A model generated the notes under the pieces. That model searched no databases and was not told the DNA's origin. It saw only the letters and a list, made by a program, of their open reading frames with translations. Positions 12,292-64,000 of a stretch of DNA of 64,000 nucleotides are shown here, piece by piece. Position 1 is the stretch's first letter. Each line of letters opens with the position of its first letter. Source of the stretch: a virus (Duplodnaviria; Heunggongvirae; Uroviricota; Caudoviricetes); IMG/VR virus record IMGVR_UViG_2861084961_000001; one strand, 5' to 3'. A program made the position numbers and the translations under genes.

Positions 12292-13121
12292 ATGAAGAAA
12301 GGTTTACTTGCAGTTGCTCTGGCGGCTATTTGCACAATGGGTCTTACTGGCTGTGATCGCGTGGAGCCTGGATACGTTGGCATCAAAGTAAACAAATTAG
12401 GTGAAGACAAAGGGATTGGTGAAGTGGTTGGCGTTGGTCGCCAATGGACAGGTCTTAACACCGAACTTTACGTATTCCCGACCTTCAAACAAATGAAGAC
12501 CTACGACGAGCCGTTCACATTCCAGATGAGTGACGGTACTGCTATTGGTCATAAAATTGGCGTTGCGTATCTGGTTAATCGTGACAAGGTAACGACGGTG
12601 TTCCAGACCTATCGCAAAGGCGTAGACGATATCACCGAATCAGATCTGCGTCAGAAAATTGCCGACTCTCTAAACCGTTTGGCCAGCCGTATGACCACTG
12701 ACTCATTTATCGACGGTGGTAAGGCGCAATTGCTGGACAACGCACTGAAAGATATTCAGAAAGAGATGTCTCCGGTTGGTATTGAGGTACTGAGCCTATC
12801 ATGGGTTGGAAGCCTGATTACCCAAAAACCGTCATTGAATCTATCAACGCCAAAGTAACGGCTAACCAGCGTACTCTGCAACGTCAGCAGGAAGTCGAAC
12901 AACGTAAAGCTGAGGCGAATATGCTGCGTGAACAGGCTAATGGTGAAGCTGATGCTATTCGTGCTCGTGCGCAAGCAGAAGCAGACGCTATTCGTCTGCG
13001 CGGTGAAGCTCTGCGTCAAAACCCGAACGTTATGGAACTGGAAGCCATCAATAAATGGAATGGCCAGTTACCGCAGTACATGACTCAAGGGGCTAACACT
13101 CCTTTCATTACAGTGAAATAA
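12292..13121 (+). CDS. SPFH/band-7 domain lipoprotein (frameshift near 12810-12850)
   Basis: Lipoprotein signal MKKGLLAVALAAICTMGLTGC (lipobox LTGC); C-terminal Ala/Glu/Arg-rich coiled coil AEANMLREQANGEADAIRARAQAEADAIRLRGEA typical of SPFH proteins; ORFs 12292..12858 and 12801..13121. Confidence 0.5.
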
Positions 13122-13163: not shown

Positions 13164-13216
13164 TTCTCGTTATTATCACACACAAGAAAACAATTTGTTA
13201 AAAGGTTAAGTTAATT

Positions 13217-14041
13217 ATGCCCAACCACATTACAAACGAAATCCGAGTCATAGGTGGTACAAATAAACAACGCTTAGATTTCATACGTGCCATAACTAAC
13301 AAAAAAGGTCTAATTGACTTTAATACCATTTGCAGACGTCCGAAAAGTATAGAAATGGAAGAAAACAATCATATCAGGCGCATGGCCTCTGCAATGGCGG
13401 GCGAAACAGTTTACGACTACATGTTCGGTGAATTAAAGACTCCAGAACAGGTCGAATTAGCTATGCGTGAATCTGGAATGACACGCAAGGAAATTCGCAA
13501 AATCAAAGAGCAGGCTCTTATGCGGCTTGAGAATTATCGTCGCTATGGCTATTACTCATGGTTTGACTGGTCGCGAGCTAATTGGGGAACAAAATGGAAT
13601 GCCTACAACATCGAAATGCCCGTAAAACGTATCCCTACACGTATTAAGTACGGCCATAATTTCCGCCATACACACGTTCGAGCATATGCAAAACGAATCT
13701 ATAAAAAACGTCTTGCAAGACATGCCGCAACTGGTGGTGAGTTGGTGATTCGCTTTGAAACAGCCTGGTCTATGCCAAAACCAATTTATCAAGCGATGGC
13801 TAGAAAGTTCCCGCACCTTGAATTTGTAATACGTTATGCAGACGAAGACTTCGGCAATAACTGCGGATTCATTTTACTTCGCAACGGCAAATGGGAATAT
13901 GACTACATTGCACCGGCGAATAACGAACAATCGTCAGAAGAAAAAATCAAATGGCGCAAGTTCGCCTTTGAGTTATGTTGTCCTGGTATTACTCCACAAG
14001 AATACGGTCTAAATGAAGAATACGAATACGCCGGATATTAA
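13217..14041 (+). CDS. hypothetical protein (274 aa)
   Basis: ORF track; no assignable motif. Confidence 0.45.
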   Translation: MPNHITNEIRVIGGTNKQRLDFIRAITNKKGLIDFNTICRRPKSIEMEENNHIRRMASAMAGETVYDYMFGELKTPEQVELAMRESGMTRKEIRKIKEQALMRLENYRRYGYYSWFDWSRANWGTKWNAYNIEMPVKRIPTRIKYGHNFRHTHVRAYAKRIYKKRLARHAATGGELVIRFETAWSMPKPIYQAMARKFPHLEFVIRYADEDFGNNCGFILLRNGKWEYDYIAPANNEQSSEEKIKWRKFAFELCCPGITPQEYGLNEEYEYAGY

Positions 14042-14166
14042 AAAATTGTCATTTAGCTTTACGCATGAAGCATAGAGGTTAATAAGATGAAAAGAAAATT
14101 GAAGAACCAAAAACAACCCTTAATAAACATGGGGAAAAAATTCAAACACATCCAGCGTTCGGTCTT

Positions 14167-14826
14167 GTGAAAACAAGCCGTGTTAGCACAACTGGCATTC
14201 GCCTATTTGATTCAGAACTGGAACATAGAGACTATATTGAAATAGGCGTTTACGAGGCAGAGCTGTCCTTAGACAATGAACGAACCCGGCCACAAAGAAG
14301 TAGCAATAGACGGCCTTTAGTTGAAATTAGACTTAGCCAGGCACAATGGGCTGCTATGGTTAGCAGTTTTGGTGTGGGCGAAGGTGTGCCATGCACTATT
14401 TCATATAAAACCATTGGCGACTCAATTAGAGTTCATGATATTGCCGAGCAAAAAAGTATTCGGCAAAAATTCAACGATCAAATAAAGGCAGCTACGAATA
14501 GTGAGATTGATCGACTTAATCAGCAAGTTTCAGAGCTAGGTGAGCTTGTGAAAAAAGGAAGAGCTGGAAAACGTGACCTTGAAGAACTATATAGAAAACT
14601 TGCATCTGCTGTAGCTAACCTTCCTGAAAATCTGTGCTTTGCTACCGAATTAATGCAGGAGCAAATGGATGAAATTGTCTCATCTGGAAAGGCGGAGATT
14701 GAGGCGTATGTTGCAGGCACTGTTATGCGTAAAGGATTAGCAGCATTAGGTACAGAATCATGCATTAACGATGATCCTACAGTCTCTATCACCAAAATGG
14801 AAAGCGGTAAAGAATTACTGCCATAA
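14167..14826 (+). CDS. hypothetical protein; true start probably ATG 14087 with an A-run indel
   Basis: Frame is open from 14086; ATG 14087 sits one frame off next to an A-run. Confidence 0.4.
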   Translation: MKTSRVSTTGIRLFDSELEHRDYIEIGVYEAELSLDNERTRPQRSSNRRPLVEIRLSQAQWAAMVSSFGVGEGVPCTISYKTIGDSIRVHDIAEQKSIRQKFNDQIKAATNSEIDRLNQQVSELGELVKKGRAGKRDLEELYRKLASAVANLPENLCFATELMQEQMDEIVSSGKAEIEAYVAGTVMRKGLAALGTESCINDDPTVSITKMESGKELLP

Positions 14827-14893
14827 ATGTATCTGAGGTACTGACAATGCTTTTAATTCAACCTGGGTTCGGTTTAAAGATAAAAAAGGACAT

Positions 14894-15235
14894 ATGTTTG
14901 GTGAGAGAGATTCCAAACGAAAAATTCTGTCTATTCGATTGCCATTTATCACCATTCATTGGTTAAACAGAGAGTCAACCGATTATTGGTATAAATGTGC
15001 AAGAGCAGCATTTAACGACCCTGACTGGTTTATAGAAAACCACCACGCGGTTCGTCAGGCAAAAAGAAAGGCAAATACGACATATATGAAGGCATATCAG
15101 GATGCCTGGGAAGAACATCGTGGTCGATACCAAAAAAACATTGAAAAACTTGAATCTGAAAATATGGACCTAAGAAGAAAACTCGGTGAAGCACGGCGAG
15201 ATATTGAAGCATATAAACGTCTTGTATCGGAGTGA
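14894..15235 (+). CDS. hypothetical protein (113 aa)
   Basis: ORF track. Confidence 0.4.
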   Translation: MFGERDSKRKILSIRLPFITIHWLNRESTDYWYKCARAAFNDPDWFIENHHAVRQAKRKANTTYMKAYQDAWEEHRGRYQKNIEKLESENMDLRRKLGEARRDIEAYKRLVSE

Positions 15236-15397
15236 ATATGACTTTACATTGTTTTTCAAAGGGCATTGCTTTTCACTATACAGAAACAGAAATAATAATG
15301 GGGCATTCTACATATGTAGTAAATGTGGCAGAACAAAATATCTTCCAGATGTCAAATTTGAAGGTCCTTAAATGTTTGCATTAAATGGGCAATACAG

Positions 15398-15814
15398 ATG
15401 ATCGCAACAGACTTTTCTAAATTAAGTGATTTTGAAATTAACAGACGAGTATGTGAGGCTTTAGATATGGAGGAGTATTTCTTCATACCTGATGACGAAG
15501 CAGATTTCGATTCGGAGATCCCCACTGATGAAAGAGGTCCTGTTTGGCAAACGTCAAAAAGGGATATTAATGGCTTCCGTGCTTCAAACGGAAATTGCTT
15601 CAATCCTTGCAACAATCCGGCAGACGCAAAGCCTATTATCGTAGAGAATAGAATTGGCATCATTCCAGCGCCAGAAAATGGATTATGGAAGGCTGCGCAT
15701 AGAAAGGTTGGTAACGATAATACTCCATACCATATGACTCAAAATGTAAATCCACTCCGCGCCGCTATGATTGTCTTTCTGATGATGAAAGAAAGTGAGA
15801 GTTGTACCGATTAA
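15398..15814 (+). CDS. hypothetical protein (138 aa)
   Basis: ORF track. Confidence 0.4.
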   Translation: MIATDFSKLSDFEINRRVCEALDMEEYFFIPDDEADFDSEIPTDERGPVWQTSKRDINGFRASNGNCFNPCNNPADAKPIIVENRIGIIPAPENGLWKAAHRKVGNDNTPYHMTQNVNPLRAAMIVFLMMKESESCTD

Positions 15815-16112
15815 TGAATATATACGATTTTTTAAAAAACCTAACACATGTGTCAGAAAAGGGTATAGACCGTCAGTCATCGATTGCTGGTCGCTATCAG
15901 CAAATAATCTCAACAATGTATTCAAAATGCATTGGGAGTTTCTTTGTGAAGCGCGCGGCGTTCTCGACATGACAGTCAGAGAAGCAATTATCTGGATTCT
16001 TTGGTTTCCGGTAAGAACATTTATGACTCTGACGTACCCATTTACCTTCTGGATTTGGGGAACCGTCCTTTATTTCATATTAAAAGGAGAAGTAAAACAT
16101 GGCAGCAATTAA
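15795..16112 (+). CDS. hypothetical protein (105 aa)
   Basis: ORF track. Confidence 0.3.
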   Translation: MRVVPINEYIRFFKKPNTCVRKGYRPSVIDCWSLSANNLNNVFKMHWEFLCEARGVLDMTVREAIIWILWFPVRTFMTLTYPFTFWIWGTVLYFILKGEVKHGSN

Positions 16113-16855: not shown

Positions 16856-17069
16856 GTTTACAGTAAAATTTATATAAGTTAGTATCTACCTATCATGAAG
16901 ATTTTATTGAATACTTGTTGCTCATCGTGTCAATAGCTTTTGTCATCGACTGCATTTTCACTGGTGTCATTCGTAAAGTCTTTTCCCCGGTGAACGACGT
17001 AGTCATAAACGCTTTGGCTATCGTGCTCGTATTTAATTCAGCATTTGATGTAATCAAAGAGGTGGCAGC

Positions 17070-17405
17070 ATGAAGGCCATCCCATTCGCGCTGTTGTTCC
17101 TTTCTTCGATCGTTGTGGCCGACACCACTGTTTATCAGTGTGAAATGTCTGTAGCCGACGTTAAGAATGGCGCTCTTACCGACGTCATAAAAGCACCATA
17201 TGGAGCGATGGTCGTAGACAGCGGCGACCAGTTCTATGTTGTGCGTGACGATCGAGTATTGTCATCCCCATATCTCACAAACCGTAATGGCAAATTAACC
17301 GGCGTCGGAGAAGACCACTTCGTATACAACAAATACAAGGGCTTCTATGGCGTTCACGCTTCTCAGCAAAGCTACCTTTTCGATGACTGCAAGGAGGTTG
17401 GATAA
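17070..17405 (+). CDS. secreted protein with N-terminal signal peptide (111 aa)
   Basis: MKAIPFALLFLSSIVVA signal-like N-terminus. Confidence 0.45.
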   Translation: MKAIPFALLFLSSIVVADTTVYQCEMSVADVKNGALTDVIKAPYGAMVVDSGDQFYVVRDDRVLSSPYLTNRNGKLTGVGEDHFVYNKYKGFYGVHASQQSYLFDDCKEVG

Positions 17406-17617
17406 TGGCATTAACACTAGCAGGTCTGGAAATCGAGAAAACAAGCGGATACTGGCGTGCTAAGGGTTTCAAGCAGCCTGGCGTTCTTGAGCGTCTGGAG
17501 CGTGAAGATGGGTATATCGTCCACCAGCGGCGTGAATGGCGCATGTACGATCCAGAAACAGGAAAACTGACTACAAAAGCCGGAACACTTTGGGGTCTGT
17601 TAAAGAAAATACACTAA
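17405..17617 (+). CDS. hypothetical protein (70 aa)
   Basis: ORF track; followed by hairpin GACTGCGG-CTCGTT-CCGCAGTC at 17627-17648. Confidence 0.35.
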   Translation: MALTLAGLEIEKTSGYWRAKGFKQPGVLERLEREDGYIVHQRREWRMYDPETGKLTTKAGTLWGLLKKIH

Positions 17618-17663
17618 ATGCAAACTGACTGCGGCTCGTTCCGCAGTCATATTTCATAGTCGT

Positions 17664-18195
17664 CACCGCTGACAGCATACACAATCAACTGCCGCTGATA
17701 GCATATCGAGAGTCTATCTCACCGCTCACAGCATACTTTACTCGATTTTTACCGCTGACAGCATACTTAAGGCATTGCATGAATAATGTGTACCGGTATG
17801 GGTATAACCAGAACAAAATTACCGCTGGCAGCATACGAAGGTCTGACATATGCCATTAATTACCGCTGATAGCATATCCAAACAAAATTCCTCAATAAAA
17901 CACCGCTGACAGCATACGTTCTATCAGGGAGCAGCAGGCAATAAATGCCTTTCACTACAAGTAATCAGCGCAATGGCAATAGAATGTTAGTGAGCGCAAA
18001 CCTATATGGAATGCACTCTTCGAGGTTAGTAACCACTGGGGAGGTATAAAAGAGCATTGAGTGGTGATAGATGATTTACCGCTCACGGCATACGTTCATC
18101 TCACTATACCGCTGGTAGCATATCTTTAACCGTTCACAGCATACTTTTCAGAAAAATAGCCGCTGATAGCATACATTTCACCGCTGACAGCATAT
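17664..18195. repeat. iteron array: 12 direct copies of CCGCTGACAGCATAC-like 15-16 bp repeats downstream of repA (incA-like copy-control locus)
   Basis: Copies near 17666, 17692, 17722, 17752, 17822, 17863, 17903, 18079, 18109, 18130, 18160, 18181, same orientation. Confidence 0.8.
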
Positions 18196-19288
18196 CAAAG
18201 CAGTTTGAGACTATTGGAAAGGATCTCAATCATCTTGATATTTTCAGGCGTCAAATTCTGTGAAAGTTCGGTTATCTTATTGATAATGTTCTGTTTGGCA
18301 TCAATTTCCCCGGCTTTCTCATCTGGTTTTTTGGGTTCGATGTCTTCAGGTTTTGGCGGTGCGACTTTGAGTTTTGGATTGCGGCTGTGAATCTGGATAT
18401 AGATCGACCGCCCTCGCTTAATCTCGCTGTATTCGAGATAACCCAAATCTTGGAGAGCTTTTAAGCCGTTACGTATAGTCTGATTCTGCGAGCTGACATT
18501 CCTGCTACTCAAATTGAGTCGCGCACGCAATCGAGCAAGCGATACCGGCGCAGGCTTGGTTGGAAGACTTTCGATGAAGGTGTACAGAGCCTGTGCTGTT
18601 TCTTTGCGTGGTAGCTTATTGATAACCTTTAACTGTAAAAGAACCTTATGGTCAAAGCGATATAGTTCGGCCAGCTTCGGTTCTGCATAGAACACCACCG
18701 TATCTTTCTGCTCGTTGTAGTCCACGCTATTGATGAGGTGCACCATCAGAAGCGAGATCTTGTTAGAGCCGTCGACATTCTTTTCTTCATACGTTCTCTG
18801 GAAAGACAGAGTGGTACGCATAATCTTCAAAAGACTGTTTGTAAGCCGGTCGCGGAGTGTTTTGCGGATCTGTGACGATGGATAGCCACAAAACTTCGCA
18901 AATTTCGTGATGCTTAACTCGACACGACCGTTAGGTTCGCCGTATTCTGCCAGCGAACGCACAACGCCCACCCACGTTTTGAAATCATGATCCATGTCGA
19001 GACGAGGACCGGTTATCTTGATATCGGAATAGCCTTCAGAACGGGCTACTTCGAGCTGAACAAGCTCCTTTGAAGCATCGATCTCATTTGGCTTGTTACG
19101 CTTGCTGTATTTTGTCCCTTGAGCGTTGGCACGAACAACCCCAGCCGCATCAACGCAATTGGTTGGACTGTATTGTTGCTATTAGGGACAAGTTCCCCTG
19201 TGTACAATTCAAGGGAACCTTCTTCAAAGTTGTCGAGATTATCTTCTACTTCTTTGTTATTTTTACCTTTTTTATTTTTTGTGGACAT
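18195..19288 (-). CDS. repA: RepA replication initiator (P1 RepA / RepFIB family), one frameshift near 19125-19140
   Basis: Blocks match recalled P1 RepA: NSNNTVQPIALMRLGLFVP, KITGPRLDMDHDFKTWVGV, LPRKETAQALYTFIESLP, HSRNPKLK; ORFs 18195..18995 and 19046..19408 in different frames. Confidence 0.8.
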
Positions 19289-19309
19289 GTGGACACCTTT
19301 GTCATTCAA

Positions 19310-19410
19310 CCGCTGACAGCATACTTGATTTGCCGCTGGCAGCATACCAAAAACAGTTGGCAGCATACGGCGAACCGTTGACAGACTATCAATTACCGCT
19401 GGCAGCATAC
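19310..19410. repeat. five iterons of the same family spaced about 21 bp upstream of repA (origin)
   Basis: Copies near 19310, 19334, 19354, 19374 (degenerate), 19396. Confidence 0.8.
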
Positions 19411-19450
19411 ATGAACATGGCTTCAGACCAGTCGTGGCGCGGCTTACAGC

Positions 19451-19523
19451 GATCGGGGATCTTATTTGATCTATACAAGGATCTATCTATGGATCTCTTT
19501 ATTAGGATCTATCCTGTGGATAT
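19451..19523. promoter_or_regulatory. origin-associated cluster of six GATC sites in short repeats plus DnaA-box-like TGTGGATAT
   Basis: GATC at about 19451, 19458, 19468, 19480, 19492, 19506; TGTGGATAT at about 19515-19523. Confidence 0.55.
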
Positions 19524-19608
19524 GTAATAATTAAAACAGGCATTTACTACCTTCGGCGCACCTGGTGGGTTATCGTTGCCTCGGCTAACAATCACAGAAA
19601 AATGACAT

Positions 19609-20253
19609 ATGGATCTAAAACGCACGCGCTGGGTTCGTCGTCTTGAAGACGGCTCCTACACTATCGAATCAAATTCCAACCTGAATAAGCAGAAGCTGCT
19701 TTGTGACATCTGCGGTATAGCGGCGAAGTGCCCGATCTACGAAACCAGAATTAAACTTGATAAGGCTGGTGTGAATTTTCATTTAAACAGTTGCATCAGG
19801 TACGTTCCATTGCTCGCATTTCGTAAACCGATCATCGGATTGGATGCCCCCTACTTCAACACACTCCGTTCAGGTGTGACGTGGCGAGATCGTTTATCAC
19901 CAGACAAGCTGATTTGCCTTGTATCCGCAGACACAGGGAAAATCATCCGTTTTGGGAAAGTAGACAAGGTTTACTCAGGTCCAGTAGACGAAATGTTGCG
20001 GAAACACAGCCGGTTTAATCATCTCTGTATGGGGGGTGAGAAAATCGAAAAGGTGGAAGAAGTGATCCGTAAATCCTACGGACACTTCCTGACCAAAGAT
20101 AGCCTGCTCACCGCAATCTACATCAGACATGTAAAACGTGAGTTCGACCTCGAATACCACAGTGAAGAAGAGCTTAACCTTGTTGACCCACGTCCAAAAG
20201 CTGGCGTCATAAGCATAAACGCAGCGCGTAAAAAGCCCACTGACGCGCTGTAA
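19609..20253 (+). CDS. hypothetical protein (214 aa)
   Basis: ORF track. Confidence 0.4.
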   Translation: MDLKRTRWVRRLEDGSYTIESNSNLNKQKLLCDICGIAAKCPIYETRIKLDKAGVNFHLNSCIRYVPLLAFRKPIIGLDAPYFNTLRSGVTWRDRLSPDKLICLVSADTGKIIRFGKVDKVYSGPVDEMLRKHSRFNHLCMGGEKIEKVEEVIRKSYGHFLTKDSLLTAIYIRHVKREFDLEYHSEEELNLVDPRPKAGVISINAARKKPTDAL

Positions 20254-20507: not shown

Positions 20508-21409
20508 ATGACTTTGCCATACGGCGTCATTTCTGACTGCCACTACCACAAATGGGATGCGTTCTCCACGACGAACGCTGAGGGGCTTAACTCCAGACTT
20601 GAAATACAGTTGGAAGCAACGAAAGAAGCAGCCATCGCCATGAAGAAGGCCGGTTGTAAGTACATGTTGGTTGCCGGTGATACATTTCACGTCCGAGGAA
20701 CTGTGTCCCCTTCTGTTTTGCATTACGTAACTGAAACGTACAAGTGGATTATCAACGAGCTTGATCTGACAGTAGTAATGCTGGCCGGTAATCACGATCT
20801 TGAAACCAACGATTCAGTATATAGCGCCAACGCAGCAGCATCGCTGAGTTCTATCGGCGTGGTAATCGTATGTGGCAAGCGCCCACACTCAATAAAAATT
20901 GGTGATGTCACTGTCCACCTGATTAGCTGGCGTAACAATCATGCGGAGCTTATCAGCGATCTGAAAGCATTACGTAAGAGCGTAGAAGGTGATAATCATG
21001 ACGTTGTTATCCATACATCCATTAACAAAGCCATTCCAACAATGCCTGACGTCGGTATCGATGCGCAGGAGTTAAAGGATATCGGCTTTCGTCTCGTGCT
21101 TAGTGGGCATTACCACAACCACAAAGAGGTCATTCCTGGAGTTATCAGTGTCGGTGCACTGACCATCAAAATTGGGGAGATGTTGGATCTCTGGCTGGTT
21201 ACATGATCGTAAACCCGGACGGCAGTTTCAGTCACTACGAAACCAGTGCGCCTAAATTCATTAACCTGGAAGATTATGTTGCCGATGATCAAATTCGCGG
21301 CAACTACGTGCGTTTCCGCGCCGTAATGAGAACGATGAAGAAGGCATTAAGTACCAGAACATCCTCAAAACAATGGGTGCAAAGGTGTTGTGTGCAACTT
21401 CATCCGTAA
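20508..21409 (+). CDS. SbcD/Mre11-like nuclease (calcineurin-like phosphoesterase), frameshift near 21195
   Basis: SDCHYH, AGDTFH, LAGNHD, SGHYHNH; CAAAGGAAAAACACATG start context. Confidence 0.65.
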
Positions 21410-34626: not shown

Positions 34627-35220
34627 ATGATTGCAGCCGAAAAAATCAAACAGCGAAAGCGCGACAACTCTCTTCGTGACCTCTGGAGAACACCTGATTG
34701 GCTGTTTTCTGCCATTCAACGTTATCTTGGGGTGACATTTGATGTTGACGTTGCCTGCAACAAGGACAATGCAAAGCTGCCTAATTTCATAGGCGTTGAG
34801 CGTGATGCTTTGAAATCTGAATGGGGACAGCCAGGTACAATTGCCTTCCTCAATCCACCCTACTCCAAAATCTCCCCCTGGATTGATGCTGCTATACGTG
34901 AGCAGGCTCGCGGAGTTACAACAGTGATGCTAATTCCTCAATCCCTCGATACAAAGTGGTATGAGCGTGCAACAGAGTATGCGAATGAGACGATTATTCT
35001 GTCTGGTGGCCGCGTAGCGTTTGTCGAGCCTGACGTCAATTTGGGTCAGGTAGAAGTAAACATCAACCCCGGTGGCAGTATGCTCGTTGTTTTTCGAGGA
35101 TTCTGTCAGGACGCTGGGCACTCTATAAGCAAGATCCCTTTGGACGTAATGAAAAGTCTGGGAGGGTATGATCCTGCGAATGTGGTCAGGAAAAAAAGAC
35201 CATCAAAGAAGGCTGCTTAG
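34627..35220 (+). CDS. DNA methyltransferase, NPPY motif (likely N6-adenine, phage Dam-like)
   Basis: FLNPPYSKISPW; start ATG 34627 (track begins at an alternative start 34615). Confidence 0.55.
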   Translation: MIAAEKIKQRKRDNSLRDLWRTPDWLFSAIQRYLGVTFDVDVACNKDNAKLPNFIGVERDALKSEWGQPGTIAFLNPPYSKISPWIDAAIREQARGVTTVMLIPQSLDTKWYERATEYANETIILSGGRVAFVEPDVNLGQVEVNINPGGSMLVVFRGFCQDAGHSISKIPLDVMKSLGGYDPANVVRKKRPSKKAA

Positions 35221-62254: not shown

Positions 62255-62935
62255 ATGGATGTAAAAATCACGATTTTGCAGGTTGATGTTGCCAACCTTC
62301 GCCCGAATACCTGGAACACCAATTCGGTTGGTGCGCAGAATTTTGAAAAACTGAAAGGTTCTATCGAAAAATTGGGCTTTTTTAAGCCAATTTTGGCTCG
62401 TGAACTTGAAGATGGATTTTTTGAAATCCTCGGCGGCGAACATCGCTGGCGTGCCGCTATTGAGCAAGGAATTTCAATGGTTCCAGTGCTTTCTGTGGGC
62501 AAAATTAGCGATGTCGTAGCTAAACAGATGTCACTGGTGGACAACGAGCGATACGGTGAAGACGACCAAATCGCATTGCAACGCTTCATTGAAGAAATTC
62601 AGTCAGAACTTGACTATCAACTGTCTGAAATCGCCCCGTATGACGACGAAATCTCGATGGTTTTAGCAAAAGAGGCGGCAATCGACCTTGAAGCACTGGA
62701 GGCGTTGTCTCGTGGTAGTGATGAGCCTGTCGATACCGACAAACGAGAGAAAACCGAACGTGTGGGGGCGGAACATCAGACCATGCGCTTCAAAGTAACT
62801 TTCGATGCGTCAGATCGTGTTGCAGAAACCATAAAAAACATCATCAAAGAGCAGGCTATTAACACCGGTAATGAAATGGAGAACGCTGGTGAGGCTCTGG
62901 TGTGGCTGGTCGACTACTACAAGGAGCGTATGTAA
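62255..62935 (+). CDS. ParB/Srx-fold nuclease-domain protein
   Basis: LRPNTWNTN...GFFKPILARELEDGFFEILGGEHRWRAAIEQGISMVPV; ATG 62255 within track ORF 62237..62935. Confidence 0.55.
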   Translation: MDVKITILQVDVANLRPNTWNTNSVGAQNFEKLKGSIEKLGFFKPILARELEDGFFEILGGEHRWRAAIEQGISMVPVLSVGKISDVVAKQMSLVDNERYGEDDQIALQRFIEEIQSELDYQLSEIAPYDDEISMVLAKEAAIDLEALEALSRGSDEPVDTDKREKTERVGAEHQTMRFKVTFDASDRVAETIKNIIKEQAINTGNEMENAGEALVWLVDYYKERM

Positions 62936-63602
62936 TGACCAAAAAGTTTGAAATCGTATATCGCGACCCGGCAGATCTTATTCCCTATGAGATGAATGCC
63001 AAAAAGCATGATGAACAGCAGATCCGAGATCTGGCCGCAGCCATTAAAAGCGCGGATTTGACCAGCCAATTACGGTCGATAAGAACGACGTAATTATTAC
63101 TGGCCACGGCCGCCGTGAGGCTGCAATTTTTGCTGGACTTGAGCGCGTACCGGTTATTGTTCGCGATGATCTCAGTGATGACGAGGTTCGTGCGAAGCGC
63201 CTTGAAGATAACCGACTTGCCAGCATTGATTACGATGCAATTAAGCTACAGAAAGAACTTGAGTCGCTTGTTCTGGACGATATCGAGGTTTTCGGCTTTG
63301 AAGAGCGGGAGTTGAATGTTCTCGTTGGCAGCATGACAGAAGAAATGGACACCGACTCGCTAGTTATCGATCTGGGCGAAGAAACTAAACGACAGAAGGA
63401 TGAACACACCGAGATCAGTCGTGAAGTTGCAGCGGAAGAAGTACGTGTTGTCGACGTATTGGGCTTTAAAACGCTCCCTGCTGGCTCTGCCATTGTTGTT
63501 GGTGATTTGCTTGCCCACATGGAAGAAATGACGGGAGAAAGCGGGGTAGACGCATTTGTGGCATATGCGGAGAAGATCTCTTCCGGGGAGATGGCTGCAT
63601 GA
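62935..63602 (+). CDS. second ParB-like domain protein (frameshift near 63050)
   Basis: IVYRDPADLIPYEMNAKKHDEQQIRDLAAAIKSA then, in the other frame, FDQPITVDKNDVIITGHGRREAAIFAGLERVPVIV. Confidence 0.5.
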
Positions 63603-64000
63603 GCAAATACATCATCAACGTATCGTTTCAGACACGCGTAAATAAAACCACGCGCACGTTGGAAATCGCTGAGTCGTTCGGGCTTGGCCTGGACGAAAAA
63701 GAGTGGACGCTTTACGACAATCTGGAGCTGGAAGTGAAGCAGGCGATGTGGTGTACATCACCGGCCAATCCGGTTCAGGTAAATCCGTTGTGTTGCGCGA
63801 GTTGCAACGCCAGATGAAGGATGAAGGGCTTTCTGTAGCTTCTATTGATGACTTTACCTTCGATAATGAGGTTAACGTCATTGACCAACTGGGCAAAACT
63901 ACCAGTGATGCGCTTGGGTTGTTATCTATGGCAGGTCTGAACGATGCATATCTGTTTGTTCGCAAGCCTTCTGAAATGTCAGACGGTCAGAAATATCGTC
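63599..64000 (+). CDS. P-loop ATPase (ABC-like), partial at window end, frameshift near 63745
   Basis: Walker A GQSGSGKS and SDGQKYR in the frame following ORF 63599..63817. Confidence 0.4.

Follow-up and report, generated by a model that had tools for sequence, protein, structure and literature searches.

The locus around repA in the window, the 64-kb stretch of DNA that was analysed as a whole, is very probably the replicon that maintains the plasmid-prophage of a phage-plasmid of the SSU5 supercluster. We place this phage-plasmid in the pECOH89/pECAZ155_2 type (rep_cluster_488; RepFIB/IncFIB) and the locus itself as a homologue of the oriR-repA-incA unit of phage P1, in which the break in the initiator gene is most likely an error of the assembly. 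An earlier sequence-only reading had proposed a complete P1-type plasmid replicon at this place, and all the elements that it listed were recovered where it had put them; the frameshift in repA was absent from its description.

The replicon type is already catalogued and the phage-plasmid family that carries it is well studied. What is added here is the repA frameshift together with its probable origin as an artefact, the homology of the origin to P1 oriR and the differences between the iterons and those of P1. The value of this work is mainly correct annotation of a replicon that already serves to flag SSU5-like phage-plasmids in plasmid-typing schemes. SSU5-like phage-plasmids, which sometimes carry resistance genes, are frequently met with in E. 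coli, Klebsiella and Salmonella, and the group to which the replicon of the window belongs is clinically frequent. Because the anatomy of the origin is homologous to that of P1 oriR, P1 genetics yields testable predictions on copy control and incompatibility for this group.

Iterons, initiator gene and origin core

Scanning the 64-kb window for ACCGCTGACAGCATAC with up to three mismatches returned 16 matches, compared with 0.43 expected from dinucleotide shuffles. Without exception these matches lie on the + strand and they are confined to 17665-19410. A seventeenth copy, with four mismatches, is found at 19374-19389 in register with its neighbours. The conserved core of the iteron, delimited by information content, is the 16-bp sequence ACCGCTGRYAGCATAY. 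All 17 copies are on the same strand, 12 of them downstream of repA and five upstream.

The downstream copies make up an incA-like control array on the + strand, arranged in two blocks of direct iterons. The distal block (17665-17917) holds seven copies of the core, with start-to-start spacings of 26, 30, 30, 70, 41 and 40 bp, and the proximal block (18078-18195) holds five, spaced 30, 21, 30 and 21 bp, the final one overlapping the stop codon of repA. The two blocks are separated by a strandless, non-repeat spacer of 160 bp (17918-18077) that is relatively variable among relatives and in which neither an ORF nor an Rfam match was found. The neighbours of the control array are small ORFs of unknown function on the + strand. 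Phage PhiR41_1 is without 86 bp of the distal block, corresponding to three iterons; thus the size of the control array varies among relatives. Upstream of repA, the five origin (incC-like) iterons (19309-19410, + strand) point the same way as those of the control array and follow one another at 23, 21, 21 and 21 bp, approximately two helical turns.

Between the two sets of iterons lies repA (18195-19288, minus strand), an initiator gene of the Rep_3 / WH family whose product is a homologue of P1 RepA. Its ATG is at 19288-19286 and is preceded by AAGGTG. Since a missing base splits the gene in the window, the homology tests against Pfam and P1 RepA were run on a frame repaired by one base. Restoring this base gives a RepA of 364 amino acids, which is the annotated length of RepA in phage PhiR41_1. 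The repaired protein matches Pfam Rep3_N (E 3.9e-9; 37.5 bits for a cut-off of 22.4 bits) as well as PHROG 775. With P1 RepA it shares 46 % identity over 278 amino acids (E 4e-86), an alignment that spans P1 residues 20-284 of 286. Searches of the repaired protein returned no family from NCBIfam and no match among PDB sequences at E up to 1.

On the minus strand upstream of repA, a scan for consensus sigma-70 promoters returned none, and the match counts of the promoter and terminator scan were no higher than those in shuffles. By eye, a weak TTGGTA-18-AAGTAT can be made out on the minus strand between origin iterons 1 and 2, a putative repA promoter that would be embedded in the origin iterons at 19309-19410. 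Rfam, applied to 17000-20000 at E up to 1, returned nothing and gave no hint of control by an antisense RNA.

The origin core extends on the far side of the origin iterons. It begins with a strandless G+C-rich box, CGTGGCGCGGC (19433-19443), which alignment shows to be conserved with P1 oriR and with Klebsiella pJN2-26. Six GATC (Dam) sites, likewise strandless, occupy 19451-19509 with starts at 19451, 19458, 19468, 19480, 19492 and 19506, and align with the five Dam sites of P1 oriR. Five of the six are in GGATCT-type heptamers and one is in CGATCG; at a threshold of at least four GATC per 70 bp, this cluster is the only one in the 64-kb window. Two DnaA boxes follow on the minus strand (19515-19530). 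The first, TGTGGATAT (19515-19523), matches TGTGGATAA at eight of nine positions; the window holds 16 matches of this quality, and TGTGGATAT is not significant alone. Its position, however, corresponds to that of the P1 DnaA boxes. The second box reads TGTGAATAA in close relatives; in the window a 1-bp deletion near 19525 has broken it. The origin core, taken from the G+C-rich box across the GATC heptamers as far as the DnaA box, aligns base for base with P1 oriR, and the same stretch can also be aligned with its counterparts in the Klebsiella pJN2-26 and SSU5 origins.

Outside the replicon, the ORF at 34627-35220 (+ strand) encodes a phage-type DNA N6-adenine methyltransferase with an NPPY motif (Pfam Dam PF05869, E 2e-38). 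This Dam-family enzyme could possibly methylate the element's own origin. The usual hosts of such phage-plasmids have a Dam of their own.

The sequence-only reading had described a RepA homologue followed by 12 iterons and preceded by five that are two helical turns apart, then six GATC sites and a DnaA-box-like sequence, with a Dam-like methyltransferase encoded elsewhere on the element. The similarity to P1 RepA bears out the first of these, the iteron counts, coordinates and spacing were reproduced, the GATC cluster and the DnaA-box-like sequence are in place, and the methyltransferase is supported by its Pfam match.

Read through the paradigm of P1 and RepFIB, these parts would work together as follows. 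RepA monomers would bind the five phased iterons at 19309-19410, and host DnaA at the terminal box or boxes would, together with RepA, bring about the opening of the adjacent region of GATC heptamers. The P1 origin has to be Dam-methylated in order to open, and once it has fired it is sequestered in its hemimethylated form. By analogy, the heptamer region of the window would open in its methylated state and, once the origin has fired, would be sequestered while hemimethylated. Transcription of repA is predicted to run leftward from a promoter within the origin iterons, and because this proposed promoter lies among the binding sites of its own product, RepA would be autorepressed. The 12 iterons past the repA stop are best understood as incA-type copy control: they would keep the copy number low by titration of RepA and by pairing with the origin (handcuffing).

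The element and its relatives

Over its entire length the window is collinear with pECAZ155_2, an E. coli plasmid of 112.9 kb; most of the aligned blocks are 97-98 % identical, and four shorter ones 90-96 %. Since pECAZ155_2 carries capsid, portal, terminase and tail genes together with dnaE, nrdAB and thyA, it is an SSU5-like phage-plasmid. The ParA-like ATPase of pECAZ155_2 (12345-13013 of that plasmid) is outside the region that matches the window. Relative to the pECOH89 / p09EL50 / pECAZ155_2 type, the window has an accessory insert of 2.9 kb (13211-16079). The replicon itself occupies a site in the conserved SSU5-like backbone and is flanked by the ORFs that also flank it in SSU5 and pJN2-26.

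At 98-99 % identity the 2-kb replicon occurs in 131 plasmids of PLSDB, 124 of which are non-mobilizable; to the plasmids listed, identity is 98.3-98.9 % over 2 kb. Both plasmids for which typing was retrieved are assigned by MOB-suite to rep_cluster_488. Of 5,426 complete E. coli genomes, 120 carry the replicon, at 185 places on plasmids and at none on chromosomes; the relatives bear out the earlier claim that the element replicates as a plasmid. Pfeifer et al. likewise described phage-plasmids of such kind as exclusively extrachromosomal (PMC9600943). The RepA protein is 99.5-99.7 % identical to those of phages PhiR41_1 and CMS-2020a, and P1-like elements with a RepA of about 41 % identity carry the annotation 'RepFIB replication protein A'.

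The literature on this family is extensive. Lanza et al. grouped such 109-kb plasmids, including pECOH89-like ones, as 'Phage-related/RepFIB' and drew the analogy with P1 (PMC4270462); it is on annotation and on this literature that the RepFIB assignment of the window's replicon rests. Most typed phage-plasmids are IncFIB, mainly from the SSU5 supercommunity (Pfeifer et al., PMC7969092). The replication genes of SSU5 (IncFIB) are included in typing tools (10.1101/2025.09.12.675607), and the PlasmidFinder label 'IncFIB(H89-PhagePlasmid)' is in routine use. The Klebsiella version goes by the name IncpKPHS1, and E. coli TOP10 has been transformed with a plasmid of this type by electroporation (PMC6735626). 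A report of RepA-linked copy-number heteroresistance (bioRxiv 10.64898/2026.08.19.745698) was set aside because it concerns the unrelated p-p47 family.

The element encodes dnaE, a DnaB-like helicase, a primase and a ligase, and no second origin was identified on it here. Thus the locus might also, or instead, be a lytic (vegetative) origin that works with the element's own DnaE, helicase and primase, and not a dedicated low-copy replicon. We regard this as improbable. In P1, the homologous RepA/oriR unit serves as the plasmid replicon, and DNA replication in the lytic cycle starts from a separate origin. The 12-iteron control array would, by the same analogy, be a copy-limiting device. E. albertii plasmids of 62-64 kb have no annotated virion genes and yet retain the same replicon, and these derivatives are evidence from nature that the region can maintain a plasmid. 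Finally, a copy number of about 5.5 per cell was measured for the SSU5-like Cyrano (PMC9928086). The function that we favor for the locus therefore remains that of a plasmid maintenance replicon.

The break in repA

In the window repA consists of two ORFs on the minus strand (19046-19288 and 18195-18995). The frame that begins with the ATG at 19288 ends at a stop at 19046, and the remainder of the gene is in another frame, with its stop at 18195-18197. Alignment with three relatives locates the break to a single base missing from the C run at 19116-19118, for which the relatives have CCCC or TCCC. Programmed frameshifting was discarded as an explanation, since RepA is encoded in a single frame by all relatives examined. 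A 41-mer spanning the frameshift had no exact match in genome_contigs or viral_contigs, nor had the repaired 42-mer across the break in viral_contigs.

Two explanations of this break were weighed. If the frameshift in repA and the damage to the second DnaA box were genuine, the replicon would be decaying and non-functional and the element would have to persist otherwise: with a co-resident relative as the source of RepA in trans, by integration, from a second replicon, or from another origin with the element's own DnaE, helicase and primase. The sequence as given does have a split repA, the deletion near 19525 is outside any homopolymer run, and decay occurs in the family, where reduced derivatives such as the E. 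albertii plasmids exist. The alternative is that the missing base was lost in the assembly, and three comparisons bear on it.

First, the damage is widespread. Compared with pECAZ155_2, 14 of 34 long conserved ORFs have frameshifting indels in the window, and in 12 of these 14 the indels are single-base deletions only, of the same kind as the one in repA. Second, the damage favors particular sequences. More than half of the one-base deletions (27 of 48) fall in reference homopolymers of at least four bases, which constitute 5.8 % of positions; the enrichment in such runs is about 10-fold. Third, the damage is restricted to the window. A four-way alignment of 5.7 kb contains seven lineage-specific 1-bp deletions in the window versus none in the three relatives, while the load of lineage-specific substitutions is similar in all four lineages (29 in the window; 20, 23 and 32 in the relatives). 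Such a pattern is probably what homopolymer under-calling leaves behind in a long-read assembly that has not been polished.

Because of the broken ORFs, the homopolymer enrichment and the window-specific deletions, we read the frameshift as an artefact: the 1-bp deletion in repA is probably a homopolymer error of the assembly and not a biological inactivation. A single repA/RepB gene is, moreover, annotated at this position in every relative examined or listed, and a genuine lesion is, in our estimate, improbable. An assembly this prone to error also means that the broken genes of the window are not to be read as pseudogenes.

Comparison with known replicons

The closest known systems are plasmids of the pECOH89 / p09EL50 / pECAZ155_2 type, whose replicon is 98-99 % identical to that of the window and whose backbone is collinear with it; they differ in being without its 1-bp deletion in repA and its other single-base deletions. 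The phage-like plasmid pECOH89 (HG530657) is linked to the window indirectly, through its RepA, which is reported to be 48 % identical to that of pLF82 (PMC3999498), the window's own figure to pLF82/Cyrano being 47.9 %.

Further away, the Klebsiella IncpKPHS1 elements (pKPHS1, pJN2-26 and ST13-OXA48phi12.3) have a RepA that is 85-87 % identical and the same iteron core. As in the family of the window, they have five origin iterons at 21 bp, a downstream array and two DnaA boxes, although the published description of IncpKPHS1 mentions four iterons only (PMC6735626). The host genus is different, and the downstream iterons of pJN2-26 number eight versus 12 in the window. For Klebsiella phage pJN2-26, the GenBank entry MZ779062 gives the labels attL and attR to two 20-bp repeats that have repA between them. 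The idea that direct repeats around repA serve an integrating prophage as att sites has next to nothing left in its favor and is refuted by repeat count and layout: both labelled repeats belong to the 13 iteron copies of the pJN2-26 locus, the labelled sites flank the initiator gene only, the iterons of the window number 17 and are helically phased, and the relatives are never chromosomal in complete E. coli genomes. As for annotation in general, some public records mislabel such iterons as att sites, or place the start of repA inside the iterons.

In SSU5, pHCM2 and pLF82 (Cyrano), RepA is 48 % identical and the logic of DnaA box, GATC sites, iterons, repA and iterons is common with the window. 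The position in the SSU5 backbone is also the same, between a conserved 214-aa ORF and a small ORF (SSU5 annotation 'putative Cre-associated protein'). Unlike the window, these elements have the iteron AACCACTGTAGAGAGTA and a downstream array with copies in both orientations, and in SSU5 the origin module is present twice. RepFIB of F / P307-type plasmids has an initiator of the same Rep_3 family and iterons that flank repA on both sides.

With phage P1, the sequence-only reading had claimed a match to the incA / repA / oriR layout. The order of parts in the window is indeed that of the annotated P1 region: control iterons (incA), repA, five origin iterons (incC), Dam sites and DnaA boxes. The origin iterons of P1 are spaced 22, 21, 21 and 21 bp compared with 23, 21, 21 and 21 bp in the window. 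In both, the control array abuts the repA stop, which is overlapped in P1 by incA copy 9, and its spacings fall into the same classes of 21, 30 and 40 bp. The G+C-rich box, the GATC heptamers and the terminal DnaA box or boxes align at the nucleotide level.

The comparison of the iterons with those of P1 thus holds for spacing and layout but fails for their sequence and for the orientation of the control array. The P1 iteron, GATGTGTGCTGGAGGGAAA, is of a 19-bp type and different from the window core, and this P1-type iteron, taken as the mark of IncY, was not found in the replicon of the window. The 12 control iterons of the window are all direct and stand in two blocks 160 bp apart, whereas the nine of P1 consist of six inverted and three direct copies. 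The window has six GATC sites and P1 has five, and the RepA of the window has about 30 extra amino acids at the N-terminus and about 55 at the C-terminus. In P1 the parA-parB-parS operon is immediately beyond incA, whereas no par operon adjoins the replicon of the window. The host elements also differ, being a siphovirus-type SSU5-like phage-plasmid here and a P1-like myovirus in the case of P1. Because the iteron sequence differs and the control iterons are all direct, the replicon of the window is, as judged from its sequence, a sister type (RepFIB/IncFIB, phage-plasmid type) and not a P1/IncY replicon, and with iterons that differ from those of P1 it should belong to a different incompatibility group.

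Start of repA and size of the control array

Two start codons can be considered for repA. In RefSeq/PGAP records the gene, annotated as 'RepB family' (L001:6598-7812), begins at an ATG equivalent to window position 19408 and yields a product of 404 aa; this ATG falls within the origin iterons. The ATG at window position 19288 is accompanied by an AAGGTG ribosome-binding site and gives a product of 364 aa, the same length as in phage PhiR41_1. The start at 19288 is more plausible than that at 19408.

PhiR41_1 lacks the 86 bp corresponding to window 17665-17750, which carry the three outermost control iterons, so that the size of the incA-like array differs between near-identical relatives (9 copies in PhiR41_1 versus 12 in the window).

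Single-base deletions in the window

Homopolymer runs across the whole window carry more single-base deletions than those of close relatives, for example at 21164, 21327, 21383, 22115, 22722, 23391, 23969 and 24486. Such deletions disrupt 14 of the 34 long conserved ORFs, among them the genes for a metallophosphoesterase, an AAA ATPase and a dihydrofolate reductase as well as a ParB-like gene. The window looks like an unpolished long-read assembly, and apparent pseudogenes within it should therefore be distrusted.

The replicon in reduced plasmids and other relatives

The same replicon, at 98.9 % identity, is found on Escherichia albertii plasmids of 62-64 kb, several of which originate from wild birds. 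In one of them, the fully annotated p2014C-4015-1 (63.8 kb), the capsid, portal, terminase and tail genes are all absent, and IS elements and hdeAB have been acquired. This plasmid appears to be a decayed phage-plasmid that persists as a plain plasmid.

The record of Klebsiella phage pJN2-26 (MZ779062) labels two 20-bp repeats on either side of repA as the phage attachment sites attR and attL (L008:1378-1397 and L008:2648-2667). These repeats are two of the 13 iteron copies of that locus, and the labels are thus a mis-annotation.

Surroundings of the replicon and comparison with known elements

Directly outside the origin, a 214-aa ORF (window 19609-20253, + strand) is kept at the same position in pJN2-26 and SSU5. 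It contains a Cys-rich stretch, CDICGIAAKC, and matches PHROG 2105 (unknown function) and no Pfam family. The window carries a 2.9-kb insert (13211-16079), missing in pECAZ155_2, that encodes a DUF1281_C/Api92-like protein (13217-14041), a P22 NinX-like protein (15398-15814) and two coiled-coil-like ORFs.

In SSU5, the DnaA-box/GATC origin module is present twice (L009:1080-1123 and L009:1455-1498), about 375 bp apart and each with its own iterons of the AACCACTGTAGAGAGTA type beside it, and the array downstream of repA holds iteron copies in both orientations.

Two ParB_N-domain genes, one with a frameshift at 63049, lie close to the right end of the window (~62255-63603, + strand), and a ParA-like Walker ATPase with a small partner ORF is encoded in a part of pECAZ155_2 outside the window's coverage (L004:11986-13013). 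Thus, whereas the partition functions of P1 adjoin its replicon, those of the present element do not.
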